The translations under genes were made by a program, and so were the position numbers. A stretch of 64,000 nt of DNA from Comamonadaceae bacterium (GTDB taxonomy: Bacteria; Pseudomonadota; Gammaproteobacteria; Burkholderiales; Burkholderiaceae_C): the NCBI GenBank assembly GCA_031430035.1, contig JANPAS010000083.1:36769-100768 (forward strand), read 5' to 3'. Below are positions 8,653 to 62,654 of the stretch, in pieces. The notes beneath the pieces were generated by a model, which saw only the letters and a list, made by a program, of their open reading frames with translations, did no database searches and had not been told where the DNA came from. How positions within the stretch are numbered: position 1 is the first letter of the stretch; each line of letters starts with the position of its first letter.

Positions 8653-8671
8653 GATAACCAGCTTTTATGGT

Positions 8672-9049: not shown

Positions 9050-9098
9050 AAGATACTCCTTCAAGTTAAAGGGCTCATTGAAACTGCCTGTGAATAAA

Positions 9099-14861: not shown

Positions 14862-14877
14862 AGCCGTGGATAAAGCA

Positions 14878-24140: not shown

Positions 24141-24148
24141 GGTTATTT

Positions 24149-35569: not shown

Positions 35570-35570
35570 T

Positions 35571-36767
35571 ATGTCTAAAAAAATCAGTCAATCGTTGGAG
35601 CGCTGGTTCCTGTCAAGAATCGCAGCCCGTCATGTTGGGGCTCTCGCAGCCGATCCCTTAGTGAAGTTGACAGTTATCGTTCCAAGTTATTGCAGACAGC
35701 CTTTCCTGCTAAGGCAGATCGTCTACTGGATGCACTCTCCAGTGAAAGTCATCATTCTGGATGGTTCGCCGGAGTCGCTGTCTTCACAACTGATTAAATC
35801 GGTGGAGACCCTCACGAACGTAACCTACCTGCATAATCCGGTCGGCTTTGTGGAGCGAGTGGCCGCGGCTGCGAGCATGATCGGTACTCCCTATGCGGTA
35901 TTGTTGGGTGATGATGAGTTCCACCTCCATAGCGGATTGCGAAACGCTGTTCAGCACTTGCAGGAAAATCCGAATGATGGCGGATGTATCGGACAGTCGC
36001 TCAAGTTTTTTATTTCGGAAAAAAATTCACAGACCGCCTATGGCTCAGGCTACTCTCATTTCAAATACGAGGTGCGGGCGGAAAATCTCCTTGAGCGTTT
36101 TAGGCATGCAATGGAGCACTACAATGCCGCGACTTGCTATGCCGTCTTGCGAACCGATGTCTGGAAGGATTCCTGGGCCTCCCTGCTGAAAACTTCCTGC
36201 AAGGATGTTTGCGAAGTTCAGCAAGCGCTGGCGACGTATAGTGCCGGGAAGTTTTCTACCGTAGCTCAGATATATTGGCTGCGCTCTTGCGAAAATGTAT
36301 CGGTCACTGACCTCAATCACTTCAAAACGCTTTCCTTTCCAGCCTGGTGGACATCTGCGGCTTATGCCGACGAACGCCAGAAAATCGTAGCTGCGATCGC
36401 TGCCGTTATCCAGAAATATGCAGGCCTTCCAAGAGCGGAGGCCGAGTCTACGGCCCGCAACGGGCTAGAGGTGTTCAATCGTTTCCACCAACGCAGCTAT
36501 CCTGCTCCAAGCTTGTTCAACCGGGCGAGAATGAAGGGCGTTCTGGTGGTCATTTTGAGGTCCGTCATGCCTGCAGGCTTCTACAGTGCGCTTAAAAACT
36601 GGGTCATGCCCAACGTGAAATTGGATCCGACCCAGTTTGCGGATATAGGCGGGAGGGAAGCCCTCTCCCAAGAAAAGTACGAAGATCTGTTCAAGTTTGA
36701 GGCTGAGACGGACAGGGAATTGCAGGGTGTCGAGTCCTTGATATTCGATTTTTACAAACACTATTGA
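35571..36767 (+). CDS. GT-A fold (family 2-like) glycosyltransferase, putative
   Basis: LTVIVPSYCRQPFLLRQIVYW, VIILDGS and AVLLGDDEF (DxD-like). The start was moved to the ATG at 35571, 1 nt after the upstream TAA. Confidence 0.45.
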   Translation: MSKKISQSLERWFLSRIAARHVGALAADPLVKLTVIVPSYCRQPFLLRQIVYWMHSPVKVIILDGSPESLSSQLIKSVETLTNVTYLHNPVGFVERVAAAASMIGTPYAVLLGDDEFHLHSGLRNAVQHLQENPNDGGCIGQSLKFFISEKNSQTAYGSGYSHFKYEVRAENLLERFRHAMEHYNAATCYAVLRTDVWKDSWASLLKTSCKDVCEVQQALATYSAGKFSTVAQIYWLRSCENVSVTDLNHFKTLSFPAWWTSAAYADERQKIVAAIAAVIQKYAGLPRAEAESTARNGLEVFNRFHQRSYPAPSLFNRARMKGVLVVILRSVMPAGFYSALKNWVMPNVKLDPTQFADIGGREALSQEKYEDLFKFEAETDRELQGVESLIFDFYKHY

Positions 36768-36785
36768 CCCGTGTGGATATAAACC

Positions 36786-37748
36786 ATGATGTCCGCTGAA
36801 TACAAAACTGTACTAATTTCAGGCGCTGGGGAGCTCGGGTCGCGCTATCTGCAAAGCATGGTTTCCTGTGTCATCCCCTTAACAGTGTACCTGCACAGCG
36901 ACAATTTGCGATCCCTCGAACTTTGCCAGCAGCGCTGGGCGGATGTCGGTGGGGATACGTCACCTCATCGTCTGGTGATGTGTGAGAGCTTGGACTTCAT
37001 ACCCGATCGGTTTGATCTCGTGATTGTTTCATCAACAGCCAAGAGCAGGCCATTGCTGGTCGATTCGATTGCGAAGCGGGCGCAGGTCAGCTATTGGCTC
37101 ATTGAAAAGATTTTAGCCCAGAGCGTTCCGGACATCGAGCAAATGCTGGCGAATGTGAGTACAGGGGCTCGAAGCTGGGTTAACTACTATATGCAGGCGG
37201 ATGCTTGGTATGCAGACATAAAAAACCATCTGCTACCCGGGACTCCGAAGCATATGAAGGTTGGTGGCGGCGATTGGGGGTTGGCTTGCAACTCGCTGCA
37301 CTTCATTCATCTTTACGCTTGGTTTTCGGAATCCCGCTTGGTTTCGCTGAATACCGATGGCCTGTCAGGGGAGGTGCACGAAAGCAAGCGGCTAGGGAAC
37401 TGGGAAATTTACGGTGAGCTGAGCGCCGAATTTGACGATGGCGGCCGGCTGGACCTGCTGGCAGAGTCAGGCCCGGTTGGGTATTCCCTGTCATTGCAGG
37501 ATGGCCCTTACGCATGGCAGATTGACGAGCCCAGCGGCGTCGCGCGACGCTCGGATGGTTTGGAAATCAAAGGCCGAGTTCCTTATCAGAGCGAACGCAA
37601 GCTGGTGGAGGAAATCCTGACCAGCGGGGAGTGTCGTTTGCCGACTTTTGCGGCGGTCGCTGCTACGGATCAGCTTTTTGTCGGCGCGATGCTGAGCCAT
37701 TGGCGACAGCACAAGGATCCGGCAGCGTTGCTGGTGCCCATTACTTGA
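36786..37748 (+). CDS. Rossmann-fold protein, degenerate Gfo/Idh/MocA-like
   Basis: VLISGAGELGSRYLQ (GxGxxG) and WLIEKILAQS, where the family has EKP. The C-terminal half is not recognisable. Confidence 0.4.
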   Translation: MMSAEYKTVLISGAGELGSRYLQSMVSCVIPLTVYLHSDNLRSLELCQQRWADVGGDTSPHRLVMCESLDFIPDRFDLVIVSSTAKSRPLLVDSIAKRAQVSYWLIEKILAQSVPDIEQMLANVSTGARSWVNYYMQADAWYADIKNHLLPGTPKHMKVGGGDWGLACNSLHFIHLYAWFSESRLVSLNTDGLSGEVHESKRLGNWEIYGELSAEFDDGGRLDLLAESGPVGYSLSLQDGPYAWQIDEPSGVARRSDGLEIKGRVPYQSERKLVEEILTSGECRLPTFAAVAATDQLFVGAMLSHWRQHKDPAALLVPIT

Positions 37749-37787
37749 TCCGCTGGGTTTTGGTGAAGTTGATATGGAGGTATATAA

Positions 37788-38732
37788 GTGCGAACATGGC
37801 TGATTGGGGCAGGCCCTATGGGCAGGGATTACTACAAAGTGATGCAGGCTCTCGGAGAACCGGTAAAAGTCATTGGCCGGGGCGAGCAGTCAGCTGCTGA
37901 ATTCGAGGCGGCAACGGGTCAGTCCGTGACTCATGGCAGCTTGGATTTCATTCTTGAGAATGAGGGCGCACCGGAGCGGGCTATCGTTGCGGTCAGCATC
38001 GACAACCTGTCTCAGGTCGCTTCGGCCCTGATTCGTGCTGGAACCAAGCGAATTCTCCTGGAAAAGCCGGGGGCACTAGACCGGGCTCAGCTCGCCGCCC
38101 TGGTAGTGTTGGCAGCAGCTCACGAGGTAACGGTGGTAATCGGCTACAACAGGCGCTTCCATGCTGCGACCCTAGCTGCAGAGGCGATGATCGCCGAAGA
38201 TGGGGGCGCGATCTCATGTCTGTTCGAATTCACCGAATGGGCTCATACCATCACGCCGCTCCGGCTTGCCGCCGCGACAAAGCAGAACTGGATGTATTCC
38301 AATTCGTCTCATGTTTCCGATCTGGCGTTTTATCTGTGCGGCCTCCCCGCCGAACTGACTGCATACCATGGTGGTGGACTTGATTGGCATACCAGTGCCG
38401 CACGTTTCGTCGGGGCCGGTATTACCGAACGGGGCGTGTTCTTTAGCTATCACGCTGATTGGGAAGCACCTGGGCGTTGGGGGGTCGAGGTGATGACGCG
38501 AAAGAGGCGCTTTATTTTCAGGCCCATGGAAAAGCTGCAAATCACGCCCATCGCCTCAACCGCGGTGGACATGGTGGCGCTGGACGATTCCCTCGATCAG
38601 AACTATAAGCCTGGCTTGTTTCTACAAACCCAAGCCTTTTTAGCTGGCGATGACCGGAGATTCTGCAGTCTCGCTCAGCAGGAAAAAAACCTCGCTGTTT
38701 ATGGCAGGATGGCGGGCTACAATGACCGATAA
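37788..38732 (+). CDS. Gfo/Idh/MocA-family oxidoreductase
   Basis: GTG start preceded by GGAGG. WLIGAGPMGRDY, ILLEKPGAL (EKP motif) and VVIGYNRRFH. Confidence 0.6.
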   Translation: MRTWLIGAGPMGRDYYKVMQALGEPVKVIGRGEQSAAEFEAATGQSVTHGSLDFILENEGAPERAIVAVSIDNLSQVASALIRAGTKRILLEKPGALDRAQLAALVVLAAAHEVTVVIGYNRRFHAATLAAEAMIAEDGGAISCLFEFTEWAHTITPLRLAAATKQNWMYSNSSHVSDLAFYLCGLPAELTAYHGGGLDWHTSAARFVGAGITERGVFFSYHADWEAPGRWGVEVMTRKRRFIFRPMEKLQITPIASTAVDMVALDDSLDQNYKPGLFLQTQAFLAGDDRRFCSLAQQEKNLAVYGRMAGYNDR

Positions 38733-38776
38733 GCGTTTGAAAAGTAAACCAATCGACAAAGAGGATCAGCGAGTGC

Positions 38777-39859
38777 ATGGGACAGTTTAAGGATATTTAC
38801 CGAAACCGGCGGGTTCTGGTCACTGGCCATACGGGGTTCAAAGGGAGCTGGCTTTCATTGTGGCTGCAGGAATTGGGGGCTGTCGTAGCTGGCATTTCTC
38901 TGGCTCCTAATACTTCTCCCAATCATTGGAGTTTGCTTGGGCTCGATATTGACGACGACACCTGTCTCGATATTCGCGACCCGATCAAGCTACAAGAGGC
39001 GATAGCCAGGCTGCAACCGGAAATCGTCTTCCATCTTGCCGCGCAGCCTCTGGTGCGGCAGTCCTACCGTGACCCCCTCGAAACCTGGGGCACTAATGTG
39101 ATCGGGACCGCGAATGTACTGGAGGCCTGCCGTCAAACCCAATCGGTTCGCGCCATCGTGCTTGTGACTTCCGACAAGTGCTATGAAAACGAGGAGTGGG
39201 CATGGGGCTATCGGGAGAATGACCGACTGGGTGGTCACGACCCCTACAGTGCATCCAAGGCGGCGGCTGAAGTGGTTGCGGCGAGCTATAGAAATTCATT
39301 TTTTGATTCCCCTGACTCGCCATTGCTGGCTACTGCCCGGGCAGGCAATGTGATCGGTGGTGGCGATTGGTCCGTGGATCGTTTAATCCCCGACTTGGTC
39401 AGGTCGATCAACACCCAGGAGGTTCTAGAGATACGCTCCCCCAATGCCACCCGACCATGGCAGCACGTCCTAGAGTCATTAAGCGGGTATTTATTGCTGG
39501 GCCAGCAGTTGTTGGAAGGAAAGAGGGAGTTTGCCACGGCATGGAACTTCGGCCCCGCAGCGGAAGGCAATCGATCGGTAACCGAAGTACTTTCACGCCT
39601 CAATGGTGAATGGCCCGCCTTGCGCTGGCAACTCTCAGCATCGGTGCATTTGCATGAAGCCCAATTGCTTTACCTCGATAGCACCATGGCCCGCAGTCGA
39701 CTCAACTGGATGCCAGTGTGGGATTTCAACCAGGCATTATCGGCAACCGCAAGATGGTATCAATCCTGGATAGAGCGCACCGAAGTGGTTAGCCGCAAGC
39801 AGTTGTCCGACTATGTCGCGGCCGCCCAAGAGCAGGGTGTGGGCTGGAGTTGCTCGTGA
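38777..39859 (+). CDS. rfbG: CDP-glucose 4,6-dehydratase
   Basis: RRVLVTGHTGFKGSWLSLWLQELGAVV, VTSDKCYEN, YSASKAAAEVV and RAGNVIGGGDW. Confidence 0.85.
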   Translation: MGQFKDIYRNRRVLVTGHTGFKGSWLSLWLQELGAVVAGISLAPNTSPNHWSLLGLDIDDDTCLDIRDPIKLQEAIARLQPEIVFHLAAQPLVRQSYRDPLETWGTNVIGTANVLEACRQTQSVRAIVLVTSDKCYENEEWAWGYRENDRLGGHDPYSASKAAAEVVAASYRNSFFDSPDSPLLATARAGNVIGGGDWSVDRLIPDLVRSINTQEVLEIRSPNATRPWQHVLESLSGYLLLGQQLLEGKREFATAWNFGPAAEGNRSVTEVLSRLNGEWPALRWQLSASVHLHEAQLLYLDSTMARSRLNWMPVWDFNQALSATARWYQSWIERTEVVSRKQLSDYVAAAQEQGVGWSCS

Positions 39860-40407
39860 AAATAGAGACGACTCCCTTGGACGGAGTGCTGGTCGTTGAC
39901 CTTGAGAGGCGCAGCGATCCGCGCGGCATCTTCATGCGGGTATTTTGTGCTAACGAATTGGCGCAAGTGTTGGGTACTCGGCATGTTGTCCAGTCTAATC
40001 ATAGCTCTAATGCCGAGGTTGGCACGGTGCGAGGCATGCATTTTCAGCATCAACCGCATGCGGAAATGAAGCTGATTACCTGCCTCCACGGCTCGGTTTG
40101 GGATGTGACCGTGGATTTGCGCTCTGGCTCGCCGACATTCCTGCAATGGTTCGCTGTAGAATTGAGTAGTGAAACCCCGCGCCTTCTGGTCATACCGGAA
40201 GGGTGTGCCCACGGTTTCCAGGTGCTGCGCCCTCAAAGCGAGCTGCTTTATTTTCACACCGCTCCTTATACCCCTGAGGCTGAAGGGGGCGTGCGTCATG
40301 ATGATCCGGCATTAGGCATTCGGTGGCCCTTGCCGGTCTCGGAGGTCTCGCAACGAGACCGTGCCCATCTGTCGATAGGTTCTAAATTTACAGGAGTTGT
40401 TGTATGA
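39856..40407 (+). CDS. NDP-4-keto-6-deoxyhexose 3,5-epimerase family (RmlC-like cupin)
   Basis: KIETTPLDGVLVVDLERRSDPRGIF, VRGMHFQ, KLITCLHGSVWDVTVDLR and PEGCAHGF. The likely GTG start at 39856 overlaps the rfbG TGA. Confidence 0.75.
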   Translation: MKIETTPLDGVLVVDLERRSDPRGIFMRVFCANELAQVLGTRHVVQSNHSSNAEVGTVRGMHFQHQPHAEMKLITCLHGSVWDVTVDLRSGSPTFLQWFAVELSSETPRLLVIPEGCAHGFQVLRPQSELLYFHTAPYTPEAEGGVRHDDPALGIRWPLPVSEVSQRDRAHLSIGSKFTGVVV

Positions 40408-41627
40408 AATGCAGGCACTGCAGGAAGGCACTCGAGAATGTCTTTCTCGACCTTGGATTCGCTCCACCTTCCAATGCGTATTTGACTGCACAACAGCTTG
40501 ATGCGCCAGAAGTGACCTTGCCTTTGAGGCTGTTCGTTTGTGATAGCTGCTGGCTTGTTCAGACACAGGATTTTTCGCGGCCGGAGGCATTGTTTGATTT
40601 TGACTACGCATACTACTCTTCGACTTCGCAGACTTGGTTAAATCATGCCAAGGAGTTCGTGAAAAACATCACCGAACGATTTAATTTGAATCGCAATAGC
40701 TTCGTAGTGGAAATAGCATCCAACGATGGGTACCTGCTGCGTAATTTTCTGGTTCCGGGCATTCCTTGTCTGGGAATTGAGCCGACCCAGGGCACGGCTG
40801 AAGTAGCCGAGAAACTGGGCATTCCGGTACTGAAAGAGTTTTTTAATAGCGAGCTGGCGCGCAGCCTAGCAGAAAAGAAAAAGGCGGACCTGATCGTCGG
40901 GAACAACGTATTTGCCCACGTCCCCGACATTAATGACTTTACGGTGGGGATGAGGGAACTTTTAAATAAAAATGGCGTTATCACGCTGGAATTTCCCCAC
41001 CTGATGCAACTGATCGAACACATTCAGTTCGACACTGTTTATCACGAGCACTTTTCCTATCTCTCGCTCTACACGGTTGAGCGCATCTTTAAAGCGGCTA
41101 ATTTGCGCATCTGGGATGTAGAGCAATTGCCTACCCACGGCGGCAGCCTGCGTGTCTATGGGTGTCATGCAGATGACACTCGCGCTAGTACGCCTGCAGT
41201 GGCCGACTTGTTGGCTGAAGAAGTTCAGCATGGCCTGCAAACCTTGGCCACTTACCAAGACTTTCAGGTTCGTGCGAATAAAGTCAAGGACGACTTGCTG
41301 AGTTTTTTGCTCGAACAAAAACGTGTAGGTAAAAAAGTCGTTGCATACGGCGCTGCCGCTAAAGGAAACACCTTGCTCAACTACGCAGGTGTCAAACCAG
41401 ACCTTCTGTCTTTTGTCTGCGATGCCGCCCCAGCCAAGCAGGGTAAATACATGCCGGGCAGCCATATCCCCATCCTGCCGCCCAGTGTCCTGACAGCCAG
41501 CGCGCCTGATTATGTGCTTATCCTGCCGTGGAATATTGCGACGGAGGTTGTGCAGCAAAATGTAACGCTTGCGGCGCAAGGAGCGAAATTTATTACTGCT
41601 GTGCCACGGCTTACGATGCTCAATTGA
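40404..41627 (+). CDS. NDP-hexose C-methyltransferase (TylCIII/KijD1 type)
   Basis: N-terminal zinc ribbon CRHCRKAL...CDSCWLVQ, SAM motif VVEIASNDGYLL, HEHFSYLSL, and a C-terminal Rossmann-like domain VVAYGAAAKGNTLLNY. This is the three-domain layout of sugar C-3 methyltransferases. Confidence 0.75.
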   Translation: MKCRHCRKALENVFLDLGFAPPSNAYLTAQQLDAPEVTLPLRLFVCDSCWLVQTQDFSRPEALFDFDYAYYSSTSQTWLNHAKEFVKNITERFNLNRNSFVVEIASNDGYLLRNFLVPGIPCLGIEPTQGTAEVAEKLGIPVLKEFFNSELARSLAEKKKADLIVGNNVFAHVPDINDFTVGMRELLNKNGVITLEFPHLMQLIEHIQFDTVYHEHFSYLSLYTVERIFKAANLRIWDVEQLPTHGGSLRVYGCHADDTRASTPAVADLLAEEVQHGLQTLATYQDFQVRANKVKDDLLSFLLEQKRVGKKVVAYGAAAKGNTLLNYAGVKPDLLSFVCDAAPAKQGKYMPGSHIPILPPSVLTASAPDYVLILPWNIATEVVQQNVTLAAQGAKFITAVPRLTMLN

Positions 41628-41666
41628 CCTTCGACTCAGCTGTACCGACTCTGTATAAATAAGCCT

Positions 41667-42788
41667 ATGAGCAATCGAATTTACTACACGAAACCATCCA
41701 TAACAGAGCTGGAAGTGCGTTACGCCACTGACGCTGCACAAAACGGCTGGGGTGATCGTTGTTACGACTACATCAACCGCTTTGAAGATGCCTTCAAGCA
41801 ACACCTTGGGGTTAAATACGCCATTGCCACTTCCAGTTGCACCGGCGCACTTCACATGGGTTTGGCATCATTGGGTGTCGGCTCGGGTGACGAAGTGATT
41901 CTGGCAGACACTAACTGGATCGCCAGTGCTGCCCCCATCACCTATCTCGGGGCAAGCCCAGTATTCGTCGATATCCTGCCCGACACATGGTGCCTTGATC
42001 CGCAGCGCGTCCGAGAAGCGATCACGCCGAAAACGAAGGCCATTATTGCTGTGCATCTCTATGGGAATCTGTGCGAGATGGATGAATTGATGTCCATCTC
42101 TAAACATTATGGCATTCCGGTAATTGAGGACGCCGCCGAGGCAATAGGCTCGGTGTATCACGGCAAGCATGCGGGATCGATAGGCAGGTTTGGCGCATTC
42201 TCATTCCACGGTACAAAGACCATCACCACTGGTGAAGGCGGAATGTTTGTCACCAACGATGCAGACTTGTACGAGTACGTGCTGACGTTAAGTAATCATG
42301 GCCGTGCCAGGGGGCAAACGAAGCAGTTCTGGCCTGATATGGTGGGCTTTAAGTACAAAATTTCCAATGTGCAGGCGGCGATCGGTTGTGCCCAGATGGA
42401 GCGTGTCGGGGATCTTGTCGCGCGCAAGCGCGAGATTTTTTCCAACTACCGAAGGCTCCTAGAGCGGTTTCCGGACGTCGTGATCAATCCTGAGTTACCG
42501 AATACCGTAAACGGCGCTTGGATGCCTAGTGCTGTCTTTACGTCGGCATCTGGCATTACTCGCGAACGGTTGCAAGCTGCGTTTGCCGCAGAAAGCATCG
42601 ACGCGCGCGTGTTTTTCAACCCCTTGTCTTCTTTGCCGATGTTCGTGGGGCAAAAGCAAAATCGATTTGCTTGGGATATTCCCAGTCGCGCCATTAATCT
42701 GCCGAGTTTCCATGACATGGAGTTTATCGACCAGGAGCGTGTCATCGATGTTATTGCCAAATTGCTGACAGAAGAGCGAACTCGATGA
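41667..42788 (+). CDS. DegT/DnrJ/EryC1-family sugar aminotransferase, perosamine-synthase-like
   Basis: YYTKPSITELE, SSCTGALHMGL, AVHLYGN, FSFHGTKTITTGEGGMFVTND (Lys), FKYKISNVQAAIGCAQMERV and INLPSF. This closely follows my recollection of the GDP-perosamine synthase (Per/RfbE) sequence pattern. Confidence 0.7.
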   Translation: MSNRIYYTKPSITELEVRYATDAAQNGWGDRCYDYINRFEDAFKQHLGVKYAIATSSCTGALHMGLASLGVGSGDEVILADTNWIASAAPITYLGASPVFVDILPDTWCLDPQRVREAITPKTKAIIAVHLYGNLCEMDELMSISKHYGIPVIEDAAEAIGSVYHGKHAGSIGRFGAFSFHGTKTITTGEGGMFVTNDADLYEYVLTLSNHGRARGQTKQFWPDMVGFKYKISNVQAAIGCAQMERVGDLVARKREIFSNYRRLLERFPDVVINPELPNTVNGAWMPSAVFTSASGITRERLQAAFAAESIDARVFFNPLSSLPMFVGQKQNRFAWDIPSRAINLPSFHDMEFIDQERVIDVIAKLLTEERTR

Positions 42789-43525
42789 AAATTTTGCTGA
42801 TGTGTGACGGGCAAGTGGGGGACCGAATTGCCTGCTGGCTCTTGGACAATTATCCTGAAGATGTCGGGGCGATCGTGACCATCAGCGAAAATGCTACGCG
42901 GATTGCCGCCCATGCCAAAAACATACCTACACTTATCTACCAATCGGAAGCGCAGATAGCGGCTGCATTGACTGCATTGCCGAAATGCAATCTCGGTCTG
43001 TTGGCATGGTGGCCAAAGCTTGTTTCGAAAAAAATTATTGCATTGACTGAGTATGGTTTTATCAACACCCACCCGAGCCTACTGCCCCACAATCGTGGTA
43101 AGCATTACAATTTCTGGGTACTGGTGGAGCAAGCCCCGTTTGGCGTTAGTCTGCACTATGTTGATGAAGGCATAGACAGTGGTGACATCGTGGCGCAAAG
43201 TCCACTTGCCTATGGTTGGGAGGATACCGGCGAAACGTTGTACGCGAAGGCTTTACAGGCGACATTCGATCTATTCAAGAAGACCTACCCTCAGTTGCGA
43301 GTGCAGGGCTTGCCGCGATTCAAGCAGGACCTTAGTCAAGGCAGTTTGCATTATGCCAAGGAGATCGATTTGGCAAGCCAAATCGATCTCGACAAATCTT
43401 ACAGAGCGCGTGACTTGATTAACCTGTTGCGCGCCAGAACGTTTCCCGGTCACCCCGCTTGCATCTTCCATGAAGACGAGGTGGCTTATGAAATTAGCAT
43501 AAAAATCAAGAGGAAATCCGTATGA
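42785..43525 (+). CDS. Sugar N-formyltransferase
   Basis: FINTHPSLLPHNRGKHYNFW (the catalytic Asn/His motif of N10-formyl-THF transferases) and VDEGIDSGDIVAQ (catalytic Asp). The small 246-aa size resembles WbkC/WbtJ. Confidence 0.7.
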   Translation: MKILLMCDGQVGDRIACWLLDNYPEDVGAIVTISENATRIAAHAKNIPTLIYQSEAQIAAALTALPKCNLGLLAWWPKLVSKKIIALTEYGFINTHPSLLPHNRGKHYNFWVLVEQAPFGVSLHYVDEGIDSGDIVAQSPLAYGWEDTGETLYAKALQATFDLFKKTYPQLRVQGLPRFKQDLSQGSLHYAKEIDLASQIDLDKSYRARDLINLLRARTFPGHPACIFHEDEVAYEISIKIKRKSV

Positions 43526-44301
43526 CTACCTATGAAAAATTTAAACAAGAGTGCGAGCAGGAAATCGCGGCAATTGGCCGTGATAGCGTTTTTCTGGACG
43601 CTACGCGTGACTGGGTAAACAGAGCCAATGCTCAGAAATATTCATATCATTTTGAATGGCTGGGCCGCCCCATTATTCAATACCCACAAGATATTATTGC
43701 CATGCAGGAGTTGATCTGGCGCGTGAAGCCCGACTTGATTATCGAGACTGGGATCGCACACGGAGGATCGTTGATTCTTAGCGCTTCGATGCTCGCTCAA
43801 CTTGATATGTGTGACGCCATTGAGGCTGGCCAAATGTTCGATCCCCGTAAGTCAAATCGGTTGGTCATCGGCCTAGACATCGATATACGAGCTCATAATA
43901 AGACTGCAATCGAAGGGCACCCGATGGGGTCGCGTATTAAAATGCTCCAAGGTTCCAGTGTGGCTCCCGAAATCGTTGCTGAGGTCAAGAAGCTAGCAGC
44001 AAACTACAAACGAGTGTTGGTTTGCCTTGATTCAAACCATACGCACGAGCATGTGTTGGCTGAACTTGAAGCTTATGCACCACTTACTAGCGTGGGAAGT
44101 TACTGTGCAGTGTTCGATACCATTATTGAAGATATGCCAGCCGAAATGTTTCCCGACCGCCCTTGGGGACCTGGTAACAATCCAAAAACTGCAGTATGGG
44201 AATTCCTCAAAACGCACACTGAGTTTGAAATTGACAAGAGTATCCAGCACAAACTGCTGATTACGGTGGCGCCGGATGGATATCTGAAGCGATGTGGATA
44301 A
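43522..44301 (+). CDS. CmcI (cephalosporin hydroxylase) family methyltransferase
   Basis: WLGRPIIQYPQDIIAMQELIWRVKPDLIIETGIAHGGSL and VCLDSNHTHEHV. The family includes sugar O-methyltransferases. Confidence 0.65.
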   Translation: MTTYEKFKQECEQEIAAIGRDSVFLDATRDWVNRANAQKYSYHFEWLGRPIIQYPQDIIAMQELIWRVKPDLIIETGIAHGGSLILSASMLAQLDMCDAIEAGQMFDPRKSNRLVIGLDIDIRAHNKTAIEGHPMGSRIKMLQGSSVAPEIVAEVKKLAANYKRVLVCLDSNHTHEHVLAELEAYAPLTSVGSYCAVFDTIIEDMPAEMFPDRPWGPGNNPKTAVWEFLKTHTEFEIDKSIQHKLLITVAPDGYLKRCG

Positions 44302-44386
44302 TATTTTCGATGTGGGCTGTTTCTGTATTAGTCGAGGGCTTCGGGATGAATATCGGTGAGTATTTTTCTGCAGTAAAGGACATTCA

Positions 44387-45169
44387 ATGAAGGCAGTAAT
44401 TCTCGCCGGCGGTCTAGGAACAAGGATTTCAGAGGAGTCCAATGTCAGGCCCAAGCCGATGATAGAAATCGGCGGCAAGCCGATCCTGTGGCATATCATG
44501 AAAACATATTCCAGCCACGGAATCAATGACTTCATCGTGTGCTGCGGCTACAAGGGCTATGTCATCAAGGAGTATTTCTCGAACTATTTCCTGCATATGT
44601 CGGACATCACCTTTGACTTGCAGAGCAATCAGGTGCAAGTCCATCAAAAGTTCGCGGAGCCATGGCGTGTCACTTTGGTGGATACCGGGGAGGAAACCAT
44701 GACAGGGGGGCGATTGAAGCGTGTCGCACCCTACTTGGCCGGGGAAGACGCCTTCTGCATGACCTATGGGGATGGCGTAAGTGATGTGGATATCACGGCA
44801 TTGATCGAGTTTCATCGGAGTCATGGTTTGAACGCCACCTTGACTGCGACACATGCCCCAACCCGCTTCGGTGTGCTAGACATATTGTCAGACATGACAG
44901 TGAAATCGTTCAAGGAGAAACCCGAGGACATGCGGGACATGATCAACGGCGGCTTCTTCGTGCTGTCTCCCAAGGTGCTTGACCTGATCGTAGGGGATCA
45001 GACAGTCTGGGAGCGGGAGCCCCTAGAAACTTTGGCTGAGCGGGGGCAATTGAAAGCGTTCAGGCACGATGGGTTTTGGCAGCCCATGGACACCCTACGT
45101 GACAAAAATTTTCTCGAGTCCCTCTGGAACTCGCGTGCGGCGCCCTGGGCTACATGGAAAACCCAATGA
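44387..45169 (+). CDS. rfbF: Glucose-1-phosphate cytidylyltransferase
   Basis: [64 protein letters not shown] and TGGRLKRV. Confidence 0.9.
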
Positions 45170-46491
45170 ATAAATTAAATCGATTGGATGAGATCCGTTT
45201 GCAGATTACGGGTTTGGTGGACGAATACGCAAGCCTCAAGTTCGCTGCGACGGATTTCGTGCCAGGGGTGACGGCTGTCCCTCCCTCCGGGAAAATGATT
45301 GGAGGCGAGGAGCTGCGCTTGATGATGGAGGCCTCGCTGGATGGCTGGCTCACGGCCGGACGTTTTAACGAGGAATTTGAACAGAAGCTGGCGAAGTTCC
45401 TCGGCGTAAAACACCTGATCACGGTCAATTCTGGCTCATCTGCCAACCTAGTGGCCTTTAATACCCTGACCAGCCCCAAGCTCGGCGATCGCGCAATCAA
45501 GCCCGGCGATGAAGTCATCGGCGTCGCGGCCGGTTTCCCGACCACGGTCAACCCTATCCTCCAGTTTGGCGCGGTTCCCGTATTCGTCGATGTCGAACTC
45601 GGCACCTACAATATCGATGCCAGCCAGATCGAAGCCGCCATCAGTCCCAAAACCAAGGCCATTATGTTGGCCCATACGCTGGGTAATCCCTACAACCTCG
45701 ACGTCGTCACCGCGCTGTGCAAGAAGCATGGTCTGTGGCTGATCGAGGATTGCTGTGACGCTTTGGGATCCACGTACAACGGCCGTATGGTGGGCGGATT
45801 CGGCGACATCGGCACCTTGAGCTTTTATCCGGCACATCACATCACGATGGGCGAAGGCGGTGCAGTGTTTACCAACAATGGTGAGCTACGGCAGATCGCC
45901 GAGAGTTTCCGCGATTGGGGCCGGGACTGTTATTGCCCGCCCGGCAAGGACAATACCTGCGGGCGCCGCTTCTGCTGGAAATTGGGGAATCTGCCGGAAG
46001 GCTACGACCACAAGTACACCTACTCGCATCTCGGCTACAACCTAAAAATTACGGACATGCAGGCTGCTTGCGGTGTGGCGCAACTGGCCAAGGCCGATTT
46101 TTTCATCCAGCGCCGGAAGGAAAATTTCAATTACCTGAAGAGTCGCCTCGCTTCCTGCGAGGAATTCATGATCCTTCCCGAGGCGACCGCCGGCTCTGCG
46201 CCGTCCTGGTTCGGCTTCCCCATCACCTTGCGCGAGAATTCTTCGACCAGTCGGGGTGACCTGATCGGTTACTTGGATCAATGCAAGATCGGCACACGCC
46301 TGCTGTTTGCTGGCAACCTGACGCGCCAGCCGTATATGATCGGCCGAAACTTCCGGATCAGCGGTGAATTGACCAATACCGATGTGGTGATGCGCAACAC
46401 CTTCTGGATCGGCGTGCAACCAGCTCTCAGCGAAGAAATGCTTGACTATTCCGCGAGCCGGATCGAAGCCTTTCTGGGCGTCAACTTTTAA
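45166..46491 (+). CDS. rfbH: CDP-6-deoxy-L-threo-D-glycero-4-hexulose 3-dehydrase (E1) family, RfbH/DdhC-like
   Basis: Long colinear similarity to my recollection of Salmonella RfbH: [46 protein letters not shown] (His in place of the PLP Lys), [23 protein letters not shown] (Fe-S Cys cluster) and [22 protein letters not shown]. The start is either the ATG at 45166 (ATGA overlap) or the ATG at 45154. Confidence 0.9.
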
Positions 46492-46500
46492 GACACTTCT

Positions 46501-47325
46501 GTGACTTCAGACCTTTCCCGTTTTGACCCCCGCCGATTGCGACGCACCGTGCTCGAGATGGCCTTTGCCGGATCGACGGTGCATATCGGCTGCGCCTTTT
46601 CCATTGTCGAAATTCTAGCTGTCCTGTATCGCAGCCACCTGCGTTATCCGGGCAACGATCCCGAAGCGACCGGCCGCGATTACCTAGTGCTGAGCAAGGG
46701 ACATGGCGTGATGGCTCAATATGCCTGCATGCGGGAGCTGGAATGGTTGGATGACAACGCGATTCGGAATTATTTTTCAGACGGCAGCCATCTCAAGGGG
46801 TTGTCCGATTCCCGCGTTCCTGGCCTGGAAGTGACTTCTGGCTCCCTCGGGCATGGTTTCTCTGTCGGCGTTGGTCTGGCATTGGCGGCAAAGCGGCTGG
46901 GCACTGATCAAAAAACTTTTGTCGTCGTTGGCGATGGTGAAATGAATGAAGGACCGATCTGGGAAGGTGCCTTGTTTGCGGCCCACCATCAGCTGAAGAA
47001 CTTCATGGTGATCGTGGATGAAAACGGCTTCCAAGCTATGGGCAGGACCCGCGATGTACTCGACCTGAATTCGCTGCAGCGCAAGCTGGAAGCCTTTGGT
47101 TTTGAAGCAGTGTTGGTGGATGGCCATGACCAACGCGCACTTGATGAAGCGATTGCCAGTCTGGGCAAAAGCGAAAAAACCGCGCCCAAGGCAATCATTG
47201 CACGCACGATCAAAGGGAAGGGCGTTGCTTTCATGGAGGACGACAACCGCTGGCATTACACACGGTTGACCGATGACACTTATCGTCAGGCGCTGGCATG
47301 TCTTGACTTGGAGAGCGCCAAATGA
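46501..47325 (+). CDS. Transketolase-like ThDP enzyme, N-terminal (PP-domain) subunit
   Basis: GTG start. HIGCAFSIVEILAVLY, LSKGHG, GSLGHGFSVGVGLA and VVGDGEMNEGPIWE (GDG-x-N ThDP/Mg motif). Confidence 0.8.
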   Translation: MTSDLSRFDPRRLRRTVLEMAFAGSTVHIGCAFSIVEILAVLYRSHLRYPGNDPEATGRDYLVLSKGHGVMAQYACMRELEWLDDNAIRNYFSDGSHLKGLSDSRVPGLEVTSGSLGHGFSVGVGLALAAKRLGTDQKTFVVVGDGEMNEGPIWEGALFAAHHQLKNFMVIVDENGFQAMGRTRDVLDLNSLQRKLEAFGFEAVLVDGHDQRALDEAIASLGKSEKTAPKAIIARTIKGKGVAFMEDDNRWHYTRLTDDTYRQALACLDLESAK

Positions 47326-48236
47326 GGGCTGCCTTTTCCAAAACCTTGGCCGATATCGCGCGTGCCGATCCGCGGGTAGTGCTGCTGACCGGCGACCATG
47401 GTTATGCGCTGTTCGACGAGTTCCGCCAGGTTTGTCCAGACCAGTACATCAATGCTGGCATTGCCGAGCAGAACATGATCGGCGTCGCTGCCGGCATGGT
47501 GCGCGCCGGATTCCGGCCCTATGTCTACGGCCTCGCCGCCTTCGTGCCAATCAGGGTGCTGGAGCAGATCAAGATCGACCTTGCGCATGACCGCCTACCT
47601 GTGGTCCTGATCGGTGATGGCGCCGGCATGGTCTACAGCCACTTGGGAACCAGTCACCAGGCGACAGAAGACATCGCCGTGACCAGAGCGCTGGCCAATC
47701 TGCAGGTCTACTCCCCGGCTGACCGTCACGAGCTGACCCGCTGCCTTGAATTGAGCGCCCATGCCTCGACCACCATCTACCTGCGCATAGGCAAGGCAGA
47801 CCGGGGCGATGTGCACCCCGCGCCAGTCACGGCCAATGCCGGCGACTTGCTGCCTGTGCGGCAGGGCGGCACAGACCTGGTGTTTCTCGCAACGGGCTCC
47901 ATGGTGCGCACCGCGATCGACATCGCCGACCGTTTTTATCCGCAAGCCTCAGTGTGGAGCGCGCCATTCATTAAACCGATCGACGCCGCCCGTGTCATCG
48001 ACATCGCTCGCCAGGCGCAGACCGTCGTCTGCATGGAGGAGCACTCTGTCCATGCAGGCTTCGGCTCCCTGGTCTGCGAGCTGGTGGCCGAGCACGCACC
48101 TACTCGGGTGTTGCGTATCGGCGTCCAGGACCGCTATTCACAGCATTGCGGCAGCTATGACTACCTGTTGCAGGAACATGGGCTGGATGCGCACGCCGTC
48201 ACCGAACGGATCGGGCAATTTATGCAGAAGTCCTGA
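47322..48236 (+). CDS. Transketolase-like ThDP enzyme, C-terminal (Pyr + C-domain) subunit
   Basis: YINAGIAEQNMIGVAAGM, GTSHQATEDIA and VCMEEHSVHAGFGS. It has a 4-nt overlap with the N-terminal subunit gene. Confidence 0.8.
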   Translation: MRAAFSKTLADIARADPRVVLLTGDHGYALFDEFRQVCPDQYINAGIAEQNMIGVAAGMVRAGFRPYVYGLAAFVPIRVLEQIKIDLAHDRLPVVLIGDGAGMVYSHLGTSHQATEDIAVTRALANLQVYSPADRHELTRCLELSAHASTTIYLRIGKADRGDVHPAPVTANAGDLLPVRQGGTDLVFLATGSMVRTAIDIADRFYPQASVWSAPFIKPIDAARVIDIARQAQTVVCMEEHSVHAGFGSLVCELVAEHAPTRVLRIGVQDRYSQHCGSYDYLLQEHGLDAHAVTERIGQFMQKS

Positions 48237-49171
48237 TGAAGCGCATCGCCATCCTTGGCGCGTCGAGCCGCATTGCGGGAGACCTGATCCTGTGGCTGGC
48301 CCAGCAGCCTGACACGGCACTCCATCTGTTCGTGCGCCGGCCACAGCAGATGCTTGACTGGCTGCACCAGAATGACATCGCGGGCCACGCCCAGGTAGGG
48401 CTCTACCCGAATTTTGGCGAGGGTGGCGAGTACTTCGCGGTGATCAATTTCGTCGGCGTTGGCGATCCGGCAAGGGCCTTGTCCATGGGTGCGGAAATCC
48501 TAGATCTGACGCATCGGTTCGACAGCCTCGCGCTGGAGTATGTGAAGCGCCATCCGCACTGTCGTTATTTGTTCACCAGCAGCGGCGCTGCTTATGGCAG
48601 CCGTTTCGAGTCGCCGGTGGACGAGGGCACCCAAGCTGTCTTTGCCATCAATGCGTTGGGAAGCGATGCTTGGTATGGCATAGCCAAGGCCCATGCCGAG
48701 TGCCGGCACCGGGCGCATCCCAAGCTGCCGATCATGGACATTCGCATTTTCAATTACATCAGCCAGACGCAGGACCTGTCGGCGCGCTTTCTGGTCACCG
48801 ATGCCATCCGCGCGATCCGAGACCGGACCGTCTTGCAGACTTCCGCTGAACGGACCGTGCGCGATTACTTGCATACCAGCGATTTTTGCGCCCTGGTCGA
48901 TGCCGTGCTGGCTGCGCCGCCGACCAACGATGTCATCGACTGCTATAGCAAGGCACCGATTGAGAAGACGGAATTGCTGCAAGCCTTGCAGGCCGCATTC
49001 GGGCTGCGCTATACGGTGTCGCCGGAGCAGGCGGACATCAACGCAACCGGACACAAGCCCTGTTACTACTCGGTCAATCGCCGTGCCCGCCACTTTGGCT
49101 ATGCGCCGGCATTCAACTCCCTGGACGGAGTCCTCGACGCCACCGCCGCACTGCTGGACGCCGGTGCTTAA
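48236..49171 (+). CDS. Extended SDR (NAD-dependent epimerase/reductase family)
   Basis: IAILGASSRIAGDL, FTSSGAAYG, YGIAKAHAE (YxxxK) and RIFNY. It directly follows the split transketolase. Confidence 0.6.
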   Translation: MKRIAILGASSRIAGDLILWLAQQPDTALHLFVRRPQQMLDWLHQNDIAGHAQVGLYPNFGEGGEYFAVINFVGVGDPARALSMGAEILDLTHRFDSLALEYVKRHPHCRYLFTSSGAAYGSRFESPVDEGTQAVFAINALGSDAWYGIAKAHAECRHRAHPKLPIMDIRIFNYISQTQDLSARFLVTDAIRAIRDRTVLQTSAERTVRDYLHTSDFCALVDAVLAAPPTNDVIDCYSKAPIEKTELLQALQAAFGLRYTVSPEQADINATGHKPCYYSVNRRARHFGYAPAFNSLDGVLDATAALLDAGA

Positions 49172-49207
49172 GGCCTGCCGCACTCCAACCACATTTCAAG
49201 AAACGTG

Positions 49208-50257
49208 ATGAACCGCCCAAGCGACAATATTTTTATCGACCCCTCTTATCCTGTCTTCAATCAGGACAAGTTATTCGACCTGGGCGATCCTTTGCTCAAT
49301 CGCGATGATCAATTGCTGCCATTCCACCGCTTGCGGGAACATTTGCACGCGCTCGGTAAATCCGTCCATACGGCGGATTACCTGTTGTCGGGCGATGCCG
49401 GTCCAGGCGGAACAAGCGCTTGTGGCTATTACTCCCTGGGCATCCTCGACAATTACCAGCGCATCGCCCGCGAAGGCCAGGCCAGGCTGAAGTCATTCGT
49501 GATCATGGAGCCGCCGGTGGTCGCACCGCACCTGTACCAGGCTTTGCCAGCACTCACGAATGCGTTCGAACGGGTCTATGTTCACAACACCGATGGCGAC
49601 TGCTATTCCCTAGCTGGGGTGCAGCAGGACAAGCTCAGGCGGCTCTATTGGCCGCTGCCCCACGCCGAAGTGCTGGAGCCCTACTGGAGCCAGCGCGACC
49701 GGATGCAGCGTATCGTGGTGATCAACGGCAGCCACAAGCCGCGCTCGTTCGACAAGGAGCTGTACAGCAAGCGCATCGATGCAATGGCGGCGCTGGCGCC
49801 CACGGGTGCAGTTGACCTGTTCGGCCGTGGCTGGGAACGCTGGTGGTCAGGCGAGGCGCGCTGGATGCCCTATTGGCGTAACCGTCGCACGCTGATGTCG
49901 ATCTATCAGGGCGCTTGCGCGTCCAAGTTCGAAGTGCTGCAGCGCTATGCGTTTTGTCTGTGCTTCGAAAATATGGCAATGAATGGCTACATCACGGAAA
50001 AGTTATTCGACTGCCTCTATGCCGGAACCATTCCGCTCTATCTGGGCGCCCCGGACATCCTTCGCTACATCCCGCAGGATGTGTTCATCGACTGCAGGCA
50101 ATATGCTTCCTGGGACGAGATGTGGAATGAGGTCAGGCTGATCCCAGCTTCACGTATCGAAGCGATGTGTGAAGCTGGCCGCCAGTTCCTGGGCAGTGAA
50201 GCCGCCCAACCCTTTTACAATTCGCTATTGCACTTGGGCTGGGGGGCAAATGAATAA
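49208..50257 (+). CDS. Glycosyltransferase family 10-like (alpha-1,3/4-fucosyltransferase type)
   Basis: C-terminal motif YAFCLCFENMAMNGYITEKLFDCLYAGTIPLYLGAPDI corresponds to the FucT motif F.L.FEN....YVTEK. GDP-fucose genes are present in the same operon. Confidence 0.55.
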   Translation: MNRPSDNIFIDPSYPVFNQDKLFDLGDPLLNRDDQLLPFHRLREHLHALGKSVHTADYLLSGDAGPGGTSACGYYSLGILDNYQRIAREGQARLKSFVIMEPPVVAPHLYQALPALTNAFERVYVHNTDGDCYSLAGVQQDKLRRLYWPLPHAEVLEPYWSQRDRMQRIVVINGSHKPRSFDKELYSKRIDAMAALAPTGAVDLFGRGWERWWSGEARWMPYWRNRRTLMSIYQGACASKFEVLQRYAFCLCFENMAMNGYITEKLFDCLYAGTIPLYLGAPDILRYIPQDVFIDCRQYASWDEMWNEVRLIPASRIEAMCEAGRQFLGSEAAQPFYNSLLHLGWGANE

Positions 50258-51305
50258 AGACGCCGCCCCTGTGCCCCTGGTGTCGGCACCGCTGGTGTCG
50301 ATCTGCATTCCTACCTACAATTCTGGGGAAACACTGGCCGAAACGCTGGCATCGATCATCGCGCAAACTTACTTGCGCCTGGAAATACTGGTGGTCGACA
50401 ACGCTTCTGCCGACGATACGTTGGAGGTAGCCCGTCGTTTTGACGATCCACGCATCCGTATCCACGAGAATGCCGACAACATTGGAGCCGAAGGCAATTT
50501 CAATCGTTGCATCCAGCTGGCCAGCGGCGAGTACACCGCGATCTATCATGCTGATGATCTTTATCTGCCGCAGATGGTCGCCGAGCAGGTCGGCTTCTTG
50601 GAGCGCCATACGGAGGTGGGCGGCGTGCTTACTGAGGCGCTGCTGATCGACGGCAGTGGCAGGCAGGCGGGCGCCATCAGCCTTCCCGCTGAATTGCACC
50701 GGAAGAACGACGTGGGCGTCACTTTTCCGGAATTGTTCAGCGCCTTGCTGCGCCACTCGAATTTCCTGATTTGTCCCAGCGCCATGGTTCGCACCACGCT
50801 CTATCAGAACGTCATCAAGGGCTGGCGCGGTGACTTGTTCGGTTCGTCGGCCGACCTCGATATCTGGCTCAGGATCGCCCACCACTCCCAGCTGGGACTG
50901 CTGCCAGCGAAGCTGATGAAGTACAGGATCAGCACTGCCCAATTCTCGTCGAAAGTTCGTTACCAGACCGGACGGGCTGATTTTTTCCGTGTCATGGACC
51001 ACTATCTTTTGCAAGACGATGTGCGTGCAGTCATGACGCCGCGCGACCTTGAGAACTATCAGCGACTGGTCCGCCGCGACACCGTGATGCGCGCCGCCAA
51101 CCTGTTTTTGACCGACCAATTCCCGCAGGTGGCATCGCTGTTAAATGACTTTTTCAGCGTCGACATGCTGTTCGCGGCAATGCGCGATAAAAGGAGCTTC
51201 GTCGTCTTGCTGCTGGGTTCCTATCTGAAAATTGTCAATTTGCCCGGGCTGCGCAGTTGCGGCCAGGCACCACTGCGGCAATTGAAGCATGCGCTTGGGA
51301 AGTAG
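50250..51305 (+). CDS. Glycosyltransferase family 2
   Basis: VSICIPTYNSGETLAETLASIIAQTY, EILVVDNASADDT and YHADDLY (DxD). The start was moved to the ATG at 50250, overlapping the upstream stop. Confidence 0.8.
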   Translation: MNKDAAPVPLVSAPLVSICIPTYNSGETLAETLASIIAQTYLRLEILVVDNASADDTLEVARRFDDPRIRIHENADNIGAEGNFNRCIQLASGEYTAIYHADDLYLPQMVAEQVGFLERHTEVGGVLTEALLIDGSGRQAGAISLPAELHRKNDVGVTFPELFSALLRHSNFLICPSAMVRTTLYQNVIKGWRGDLFGSSADLDIWLRIAHHSQLGLLPAKLMKYRISTAQFSSKVRYQTGRADFFRVMDHYLLQDDVRAVMTPRDLENYQRLVRRDTVMRAANLFLTDQFPQVASLLNDFFSVDMLFAAMRDKRSFVVLLLGSYLKIVNLPGLRSCGQAPLRQLKHALGK

Positions 51306-62601: not shown

Positions 62602-62605
62602 AGAG

Positions 62606-62654
62606 TTATCCCCTCTCCCTTGATGGGAGAGGGCTAGGGTGAGGGTGAAGGTGG
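62606..62654. repeat. REP-like element with a perfect 9-bp hairpin, forming the 3' end of rmlD
   Basis: CCCTCTCCC (62611-62619), loop ttgat, GGGAGAGGG (62625-62633), flanked by CTAGGGTGAGGGTGAAGGTGG. It has the same architecture as the element at 2441-2484, in the opposite orientation. Confidence 0.6.

Follow-up and report, generated by a model that had tools for sequence, protein, structure and literature searches.

What a transketolase does among genes for cytidine diphosphate (CDP)-linked deoxysugars is the question raised by a glycan locus in a 64,000-nucleotide stretch of Comamonadaceae bacterium DNA (GenBank assembly GCA_031430035.1, contig JANPAS010000083.1, positions 36,769 to 100,768; hereafter the window, in whose own numbering positions are given). 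Eleven genes, all on the plus strand, fill positions 38777–49171 as one tightly packed string, with successive junctions of −10, −4, 39, −4, −4, 85, −16, 9, −4 and −1 nt and a largest gap of 85 nt. Towards the downstream end, two genes for the subunits of a transketolase-like, thiamine diphosphate (ThDP)-dependent enzyme lie between rfbH, which encodes the 3-dehydrase E1 of 3,6-dideoxyhexose synthesis, and a gene for an extended short-chain dehydrogenase/reductase (SDR). With moderate confidence we propose that this pair is a transketolase-type analogue of YerE, the ThDP enzyme of the yersiniose A pathway, and that together with a reductase it would make a yersiniose-like branched sugar beside a separate pathway for a C-methylated formamido sugar.

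Gene identities were assigned from Pfam and NCBIfam hidden Markov model (HMM) scans, in which the E-values are such that chance matches are not a concern. Two genes would supply both pathways: rfbG/ddhB for CDP-glucose 4,6-dehydratase (38777–39859; TIGR02622 485 bits, cut-off 278) and rfbF/ddhA for glucose-1-phosphate cytidylyltransferase (44387–45169; TIGR02623 452 bits, cut-off 300). What we call pathway A comprises rfbH/ddhC, encoding the pyridoxamine phosphate (PMP)- and [2Fe-2S]-dependent CDP-4-keto-6-deoxyglucose 3-dehydrase E1 (45154–46491; NF011936 734 bits); tktN, for the N-terminal (PP) subunit of the transketolase-like enzyme (46501–47325; PF00456); tktC, for its Pyr and C-terminal subunit (47322–48236; PF02779 and PF02780); and an atypical extended SDR gene whose start shares 1 nt with the stop codon of tktC, its product being the predicted ketoreductase of the new branch (48236–49171; PF01370, E 2e-11). 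Pathway B comprises genes for an RmlC-like nucleoside diphosphate (NDP)-4-keto-6-deoxyhexose epimerase (39850–40407; PF00908, E 5e-59), a three-domain NDP-sugar C3-methyltransferase (40404–41627; PF08421, PF13489 and PF08484), a DegT-family sugar 4-aminotransferase (41667–42788; PF01041, E 2e-119), a sugar N-formyltransferase (42785–43525; PF00551 and PF18216) and a methyltransferase of the CmcI/rhamnosyl-O-methyltransferase family (43522–44301; PF04989, E 9e-98). All eight items named in the initial annotation of this DNA are recovered by the scans at the positions given there and on the plus strand; its gene list left out the aminotransferase and the formyltransferase, and with these two genes added the block reads differently. 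It now appears to hold two CDP-sugar pathways with RfbF and RfbG in common, and we propose that both branch from one intermediate made by RfbF and then RfbG.

The genes of pathway A are part of a conserved cassette. Relatives of tktN turned up in 348 of 185,579 species genomes in a pattern scan that took one genome for each species, and many homologues are 67–95% identical to it. Synteny was read from 84 loci returned by the transketolase searches (numbered with the prefix L), gene order being judged wherever the flank sufficed: rfbF-rfbG-rfbH-tktN-tktC is contiguous and unchanged in order in every one of the 84 with enough flank. The best 80 loci come from Beta-, Gamma- and Alphaproteobacteria, Chlorobiaceae, Cyanobium/Synechococcus, Planctomycetota and Cytophagales. 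In 64 of 71 loci tktC is followed by an extended SDR gene, a position filled by at least four subfamilies with a mutual identity of 24–30% while the five genes upstream stay constant. None of the 84 cassette loci contains the C-methyltransferase, the formyltransferase or the CmcI-type gene. A DNA search of 5,426 E. coli genomes gave no match, a plasmid search returned only generic split transketolases of at most 42% identity, and full-text literature searches found no published description of an rfbH-linked transketolase. An apparent E1–transketolase fusion in L040, L046 and L058 was rejected: the stop-free stretches follow the tktN frame, which by coordinates differs from that of rfbH, and are taken as an effect of high GC content; this comparison of frames covered those three loci, with L065 and L074 outside it. 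The cassette also occurs, without pathway B, in Laribacter hongkongensis (L090; GCA_015024395.1), a culturable human pathogen, where an insertion sequence element follows the GT1 gene. Other carrier strains include Paucimonas lemoignei DSM 7445, Caballeronia sordidicola LMG 22029 and Ideonella azotifigens JCM 15503.

The genes upstream of the transketolase-like pair point to its probable substrate. E1 of the window matches the E1 structures of Yersinia pseudotuberculosis (3BCX/3BB8) with an E-value of 4e-200 and about 70% identity, and its His228 and Cys201/259/261/269 correspond to Yersinia His220, which replaces the usual Lys, and Cys193/251/253/261. These residues are kept in all 75 loci examined, including two Cyanobium metagenome-assembled genomes (MAGs; L077 and L079, positions about 8400–9750) in which RfbH is only 43–45% identical to that of the window while the transketolase subunits are 60–68% identical. 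The window accordingly encodes the cytidylyltransferase, the 4,6-dehydratase and an E1 with the His and four cluster Cys that characterize a CDP-3,6-dideoxyhexose pathway. A dedicated E3 reductase (AscD/DdhD, with Fer2, FAD and NAD domains), whose absence the initial annotation had implied, was found nowhere in the 64 kb by motif scan and tblastn. By motif scan, tblastn and Pfam, 19 related loci do carry a Fer2, FAD_binding_6 and NAD_binding_1 reductase of this E3/AscD type directly upstream of rfbF, about 1 kb from it (L012, L035, L042, L043, L058, L063, L065–L067, L069–L071, L073–L076, L078, L080 and L081), giving the layout ddhD-ddhA-ddhB-ddhC-tktN-tktC-SDR. Because E3 and the transketolase pair occur together in these loci, the pair would act otherwise than E3 and downstream of E1/E3, and the idea that it substitutes for E3 is largely rejected.

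The active site of the pair indicates what this downstream step might be. Its nearest structures are those of a split transketolase, 6YAK for tktN (E 1e-48) and 6YAJ for tktC (E 2e-44), yet its scores reach no NCBIfam cut-off for transketolase or DXS; the DXS model does equally well on tktC, and PF00676/E1_dh is a weak secondary match only. We aligned 82 family members to TktA of E. coli MG1655, whose numbering is used for the residues. The ThDP-binding GDG...N motif (Asp155/Asn185), Glu411, His26, His66 and His473 are kept in all 82, and the catalytic machinery is therefore predicted to be intact. Four other positions are changed in all 82 (His100Leu, Asp469Leu, His461Gly and Arg520Lys), the His100 position being Leu101 in tktN of the window, and Arg358 is retained. 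In transketolase, His100 binds the 1-hydroxyl of the ThDP-bound unit, Asp469 hydrogen-bonds the acceptor 2-hydroxyl, and His461 and Arg520 bind the substrate phosphate. As judged by these residues, the pair agrees with canonical transketolase (EC 2.2.1.1) in its cofactor site and departs from it at the donor, acceptor and phosphate sites. Control enzymes keep what the cassette family has lost: the canonical split transketolase of Carboxydothermus hydrogenoformans (6YAK/6YAJ) retains GHPD, THAG, GEDG and LGR, and the split transketolases of Azospirillum plasmid pAB510f and of Streptomyces, both 42% identical, retain His100 and Arg520. The Streptomyces control is plasmid-borne, and its transketolase pair comes after a DegT gene (DegT-TK-TK). 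The Azospirillum control (Azospirillum sp. B510, L091, 6001–10564), which also keeps Asp469, stands in an arrangement of its own: genes for a kinase and a NUDIX hydrolase precede the transketolase, and those for an SDR, an aldo/keto reductase, a TylF-like O-methyltransferase and a glycosyltransferase come after it, possibly as a further sugar-tailoring module built around a transketolase.

The substitutions can be set against both the proposed substrate and an engineered precedent. The E1 product has a CH2 beside the ketone and carries CDP in place of a simple phosphate, so the changes fit a 3-deoxy-4-keto nucleotide-sugar acceptor; together they suggest such an acceptor and a non-hydroxylated two-carbon (C2) donor. 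A His102Leu-type change allows an engineered Geobacillus transketolase to use pyruvate and aliphatic 2-oxoacids (PMC11997939). The natural family resembles this enzyme (H102L/(L118I)/H474S) in having Leu at the His102 equivalent and differs from it in that the His474 equivalent is unchanged and Asp469, His461 and Arg520 are also altered.

The reductase at the end of the cassette is distant from known enzymes. A PDB sequence search with the SDR reached only E 1e-4 at best, and its Ser/Tyr/Lys triad (Ser115/116, Tyr147 and Lys151) does not vary across 50 homologues. An AlphaFold2 model built from these homologues (pLDDT 85) has as its best fold match 8V4H, an NADP-dependent CDP-glucitol-forming reductase of Campylobacter (TM 0.84, 16% identity) and thus a ketoreductase with a CDP substrate. 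The modelled fold would suit an enzyme that reduces a carbonyl in the side chain of a CDP-sugar, as YerF does (PMC9306805); the likeness to YerF comes from the position of the SDR gene beside the ThDP enzyme, not from sequence comparison.

Taken with its gene order, the cassette closely parallels the yersiniose A pathway of Y. pseudotuberculosis O:6 (DdhA-D, YerE and YerF). Outside Yersinia, known producers of yersiniose A are Burkholderia brasiliensis M130, Budvicia aquatica 20186 and Pseudomonas mandelii CYar1. Both start from the same precursor genes ddhA, ddhB and ddhC, with ddhD present in the 19 related loci, and in both, by the same logic, ddhC is followed at once by a ThDP enzyme and then by an NAD(P)H reductase; the E3-bearing cassettes repeat the Yersinia order ddhDABC-yerE-yerF with the transketolase pair in the place of yerE. 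The acetyl-equivalent donor of YerE (PMC12247030, PMC9306805) is the donor predicted here. For YerE-like enzymes, branching of CDP-4-keto-3,6-dideoxyglucose with ThDP is established, as is the scheme in which branching precedes reduction with NAD(P)H (PMC9306805). The systems differ in that YerE is a single-chain flavoprotein of the decarboxylase family, whereas the cassette encodes a two-subunit protein of the transketolase family, and in that the window is without an E3 gene. YerE-type TPP_enzyme_N/M/C domains were absent from Pfam scans of the main co-directional gene chain of the window, and a crude motif scan found no long ThDP open reading frame (ORF) other than TktN in the window or related loci. 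The cassette is thus predicted to work like YerE/YerF from outside that enzyme family.

From the gene identities, the conservation of the cassette, its co-occurrence with E3 and the substitutions, we infer the following route, in which the donor, the acceptor, the order of steps, the stereochemistry and the use of glycosyltransferases are predictions. RfbF would form CDP-glucose and RfbG CDP-4-keto-6-deoxy-D-glucose, from which E1 would strip the 3-hydroxyl to give CDP-4-keto-3,6-dideoxy-D-glucose; because the window has no E3 gene, the electrons for E1 would come from a reductase encoded elsewhere. The ThDP pair would then take up a C2 unit that lacks the usual 1-hydroxyl, an acetyl equivalent supplied most simply by pyruvate and possibly by a 1-deoxyketose, and join it to the C4 ketone as a 4-C-acetyl tertiary alcohol. 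The adjacent SDR would turn the side-chain carbonyl into a 1-hydroxyethyl group, yielding a yersiniose-type 3,6-dideoxy-4-C-(1-hydroxyethyl)hexose by YerE/YerF chemistry done by an unrelated ThDP family. The initial annotation had assigned a transketolase-type ThDP enzyme and an SDR to the YerE and YerF roles after E1, and synteny, E3 co-occurrence and the remodelled active site all support this assignment; of the hydroxyethyl and hydroxyacetyl branches that it had envisaged, the second is made less likely by the invariant His100Leu change.

Other branching systems resemble the cassette in part. In classical abequose, paratose, tyvelose and ascarylose pathways RfbF, RfbG and RfbH are orthologous and an SDR also follows; here a ThDP pair stands between E1 and the SDR, the window has no E3, and the SDR is without a close solved relative. 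For miharamycin and amipurimycin biosynthesis and for 13 Streptomyces clusters, hydroxyacetyl branching by a split transketolase has been put forward (Krug et al. 2024, as relayed in PMC12247030). As in the cassette, a split transketolase lies there among sugar-tailoring genes with a keto sugar as the proposed acceptor, the assignment being a proposal on both sides; those systems belong to Streptomyces secondary metabolism and would transfer a hydroxylated unit, whereas the cassette occurs in Gram-negative and cyanobacterial cell-surface glycan loci. The cassette pair is also rfbH-linked and carries His100Leu, whereas the DegT-linked split transketolase that serves as our sole Streptomyces comparison keeps His100. 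AviB1/AviB2, the aldgarose enzymes and KbDH-alpha/beta are heteromeric ThDP enzymes that add a C2 acetyl unit from pyruvate to an NDP-keto sugar, often with subsequent ketoreduction (PMC12247030, PMC4753412). These pairs share heteromeric ThDP architecture with the cassette enzyme, but they are of the alpha-keto acid dehydrogenase E1 type, from another ThDP superfamily, and act in actinomycete antibiotic pathways on dTDP rather than CDP sugars. For branched 3,6-dideoxy sugars of bacterial surface glycans, YerE-like enzymes are the only builders known; a 2025 review gives transketolase-type branching only as an untested proposal for Streptomyces antibiotic clusters (PMC12247030).

The remaining tailoring genes appear to make a second sugar. 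The RmlC-like protein scores 151.4 against TIGR01221 (cut-off 155.75) and its gene precedes that of the C-methyltransferase in L086, L087 and L088 alike; a second, canonical rmlC lies on the minus strand at 61127–61714. The C-methyltransferase has the Zn-binding N-domain, the S-adenosylmethionine domain and the C-terminal domain of C3-methyltransferases, and its nearest structures are the 3-C-methyltransferases 4RV9 (E 1e-80), 5T64 and TcaB9 (3NDI); homologues at about 70% identity are widespread. The aminotransferase, whose nearest structures include perosamine synthetases (E 8e-74) among other sugar aminotransferases, has its catalytic Lys in 'SFHGTKTITTGEGG' ('SFHGTK') and is 71% identical to its L087 orthologue. 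The formyltransferase combines a Formyl_trans_N core with a C-terminal dimerization domain, as expected of a sugar N-formyltransferase, carries the motif 'NTHPSLLPHNRG', and matches in the PDB the 4-amino-sugar formyltransferases 4NV1, 6V33 and VioF (4YFV among the matches). In L086 and L087, too, the module ends with the CmcI-type gene. On this evidence the RmlC-like enzyme would epimerize the 4-keto sugar, the TylC3/MtmC-type enzyme would methylate C3, the DegT enzyme would aminate C4, the formyltransferase would formylate the amine and the CmcI-type enzyme would put on an O-methyl group, so that the product is probably CDP-4-formamido-4,6-dideoxy-3-C-methyl-(O-methyl)hexose. Such a sugar presumably resembles N-formylkansosamine, and its activation with CDP would match that of vinelose. 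Pathway B uses the same enzyme types as kansosamine, CDP-vinelose, MtmC/TylC3/KijD1/TcaB9, WbtJ and VioF; MtmC/TylC3/KijD1/TcaB9, WbtJ and VioF act on dTDP or GDP sugars, whereas pathway B is predicted to act on CDP sugars.

Comparison with related loci indicates that the two pathways were brought together by recombination. In a Polaromonas locus (L087) the order rfbF-rfbG-RmlC-like-C-methyltransferase-aminotransferase-formyltransferase-CmcI is followed by a Wzx-type gene, with neither rfbH nor a transketolase. A Magnetococcus locus (L088), also without rfbH and transketolase, has rfbF-rfbG-RmlC-like-C-methyltransferase, with an SDR gene a few genes on in place of the aminotransferase and formyltransferase. 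The architecture of the window recurs in L086 (3959–7872; JGI metagenome 3300073878), except that a 288-aa SDR and a second methyltransferase stand where the window has the aminotransferase and formyltransferase; its predicted product is a vinelose-like 6-deoxy-3-C-methyl-O-methylhexose, and the tailoring genes seem to be exchanged together within a frame that stays constant. Window rfbG is 46–52% identical to rfbG of cassette loci and 65–68% identical to the rfbG genes beside C-methyltransferase genes in L086 and L088, which by lineage would place it in the pathway B block. In the nearest relative, a Lacisediminimonas MAG (L005), everything from rfbH through the downstream glycosyltransferases (to GT1) is 89–97% identical to the window, and rfbF and rfbG, both directly before rfbH, are 68% and 47% identical. 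The Laribacter locus in turn has the gene-family order of the window around the cassette (roughly 30329–60576) minus pathway B. The drop in identity at rfbF and rfbG in L005 and the Laribacter layout mark window 35478–45169 as a recombinant block. The block replaced the own rfbF-rfbG of the cassette and brought in a second pathway with its own rfbG and rfbF. Two earlier ideas give way to this picture: that of a single CDP-hexose module, since the C-methyltransferase, RmlC-like and CmcI-type genes with the aminotransferase and formyltransferase form a separate pathway that stands alone in L087 and is absent from the 84 cassette loci, and that of a C-methyl group as a second branch on the dideoxyhexose, which is predicted instead on the second, 4-formamido sugar.

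Several points weigh against the proposed acetyl-type branching and the formamido sugar beside it. H474S, the second engineered change for pyruvate use, is absent from the cassette family, which keeps His473, and ketone acceptance is unproven for any transketolase-family enzyme, the Streptomyces cases included (PMC12247030). The SDRs, being of at least four subfamilies only 24–30% identical, could be plain 4-ketoreductases, and the window-type SDR occurs with E3 in 1 locus and without it in 26, other SDR types being found with E3 in 17 and without it in 9. This split may reflect two cassette lineages, one of them relying on a housekeeping reductase as SpnQ does. We know of no glycan from any carrier organism, and for the pathway B sugar the methylation of C3 as against C5, the pattern of epimerization and the position of the O-methyl group are all still predictions.

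The main rival, which we regard as unlikely, is classical ketol transfer, in which hydroxypyruvate or a ketose phosphate would provide a hydroxyacetyl (glycolaldehyde) unit for addition to the C4 ketone, the branch after reduction being 4-C-(1,2-dihydroxyethyl), as proposed for miharamycin and amipurimycin. Family membership, intact ThDP machinery and the retained Arg358 all agree with it, as does the proposed role of split transketolases in such branching in Streptomyces (PMC12247030), but His100 is Leu in 82 of 82 members, the Streptomyces split transketolase beside a DegT gene retains His100, and His461 and Arg520 of the phosphate site are both changed. A very unlikely alternative makes the pair an electron donor: where E3 is absent, a ThDP-bound enamine would give two electrons to the [2Fe-2S] cluster of E1, no branch would be built, and the SDR would act as an ordinary 4-ketoreductase that yields an unbranched paratose-, abequose- or ascarylose-type sugar. 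In an equally unlikely extension, the pair would have two functions in the E3-less cassettes, with electron delivery coupled to C–C bond formation or in its stead, and the atypical SDR would set the final stereochemistry. No E3 is within reach in the window and about 60 related loci, the SDR is placed like abe or prt of classical clusters and varies in type likewise, E3 absence goes with the window-type SDR, and transketolase intermediates can reduce ferricyanide; against this, E3 and the pair stand together in 19 loci, the changes in donor and acceptor residues would be left unexplained, and E1 homologues without a dedicated E3, such as SpnQ, use general reductases. Were it true, a ThDP enamine would be a new way to drive PMP/Fe-S deoxygenation from a 2-oxoacid.

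The genes could also form one linear pathway, with the C-methyltransferase and tailoring enzymes acting on the E1-derived 3,6-dideoxy sugar to give one sugar with both branches. All genes from rfbG to the SDR do lie in one co-directional packed string, and L086 repeats this architecture. We nevertheless give this arrangement little credence: L087 and L088 carry C-methyltransferase modules with rfbF/rfbG and without rfbH or a transketolase, 84 of 84 cassette loci are without the tailoring genes, the L005 identities (89–97% as against 68% and 47%) mark a recombinant junction, and a 4-aminotransferase and a C4-branching enzyme would compete for one carbonyl. The chance that the two are ordinary metabolic genes, of pentose-phosphate or DXS-like kind, that only happen to lie here is close to negligible; Pfam and NCBIfam name the pair transketolase and the DXS model scores equally on tktC, but the scores fall under every NCBIfam transketolase and DXS cut-off, the canonical substrate residues are invariably lost, and synteny with rfbH is strict across phyla. 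Addition of an acetyl equivalent to the E1 product, followed by ketoreduction, is thus the reading that we retain.

The cassette and its inserted neighbour lie in what HMM scans identify as one large glycan locus. The window also encodes glycosyltransferases, a pyruvyl transferase, genes for GDP-mannose-derived sugars, a NeuB-type module, FnlABC-like genes and rmlCAD(B). GT10- and GT2-family glycosyltransferase genes directly downstream of the SDR (49205–51305, plus strand; PF00852 and PF00535) are candidates for transfer of the cassette product. By tblastn the GT10 gene recurs in 8 and the GT2 gene in 7 cassette loci, among them L005, L006, L019, L022, L024 and L086, lying a few kilobases from the SDR gene in L019 and L022, and by Pfam the GT10-GT2 pair directly follows the SDR gene in Laribacter. 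The fucosyltransferase-like GT10 (49205–50257) could instead use a GDP-6-deoxyhexose, given the GDP-mannose genes (ManC, Gmd and an epimerase/reductase) at 12466–16946; in other loci, too, it lies beside the cassette, which speaks for a link to the cassette product.

The left part of the inserted block holds three plus-strand genes, none with an assigned role: a GT2-like gene (35478–36767; PF00535), an unknown ORF (36786–37748) and a GFO/IDH/MocA oxidoreductase gene (37788–38732; PF01408). The last two recur before rfbG in L086 and are not in L005 or the related Laribacter locus. The oxidoreductase was considered as a member of either pathway and left unassigned, being found only in L086 and not in L087 or the cassette loci. 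Farther upstream, a run at 18820–25537 encodes an NTP-transferase, a CBS-GHMP kinase, a 630-aa NeuB–xylose-isomerase-like TIM barrel fusion, a SIS-domain protein, a CMP-type cytidylyltransferase and a class-III aminotransferase, and resembles a pathway of nonulosonic or ulosonic acid type in which the NeuB fusion is unusual. At 52437–56365, where the window is richest in T (AT skew −0.19 to −0.27), lie two large ORFs of 483 and 825 aa without a Pfam match; L005 keeps them at 84% and 79% identity, and they may encode membrane proteins such as a polymerase, a ligase or a GT-C type enzyme. On the minus strand, 60606–63960 carries (rmlB fragment)-rmlD-rmlA-rmlC-NusG and converges on the main glycan operon, with a 174-aa NusG-family paralogue at the downstream end of the rml string.

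Our analysis adds to the known routes of sugar branching a conserved, phylum-spanning cassette that couples E1 to a remodelled transketolase. If the proposed reaction is correct, the use of a ketone acceptor with a non-hydroxylated donor would be shown for the first time in a natural member of the transketolase family, and a biocatalyst for chiral tertiary alcohols would be ready to hand. An explanation would also follow for the 'transketolase', so far unannotated, that hundreds of O-antigen and glycan loci carry, that of Laribacter hongkongensis included, and yersiniose-type sugars would be far more widespread than has been thought. Within the mosaic locus itself, one CDP-glucose entry point would serve two rare-sugar branches, an arrangement relevant to the prediction of glycans from sequence.

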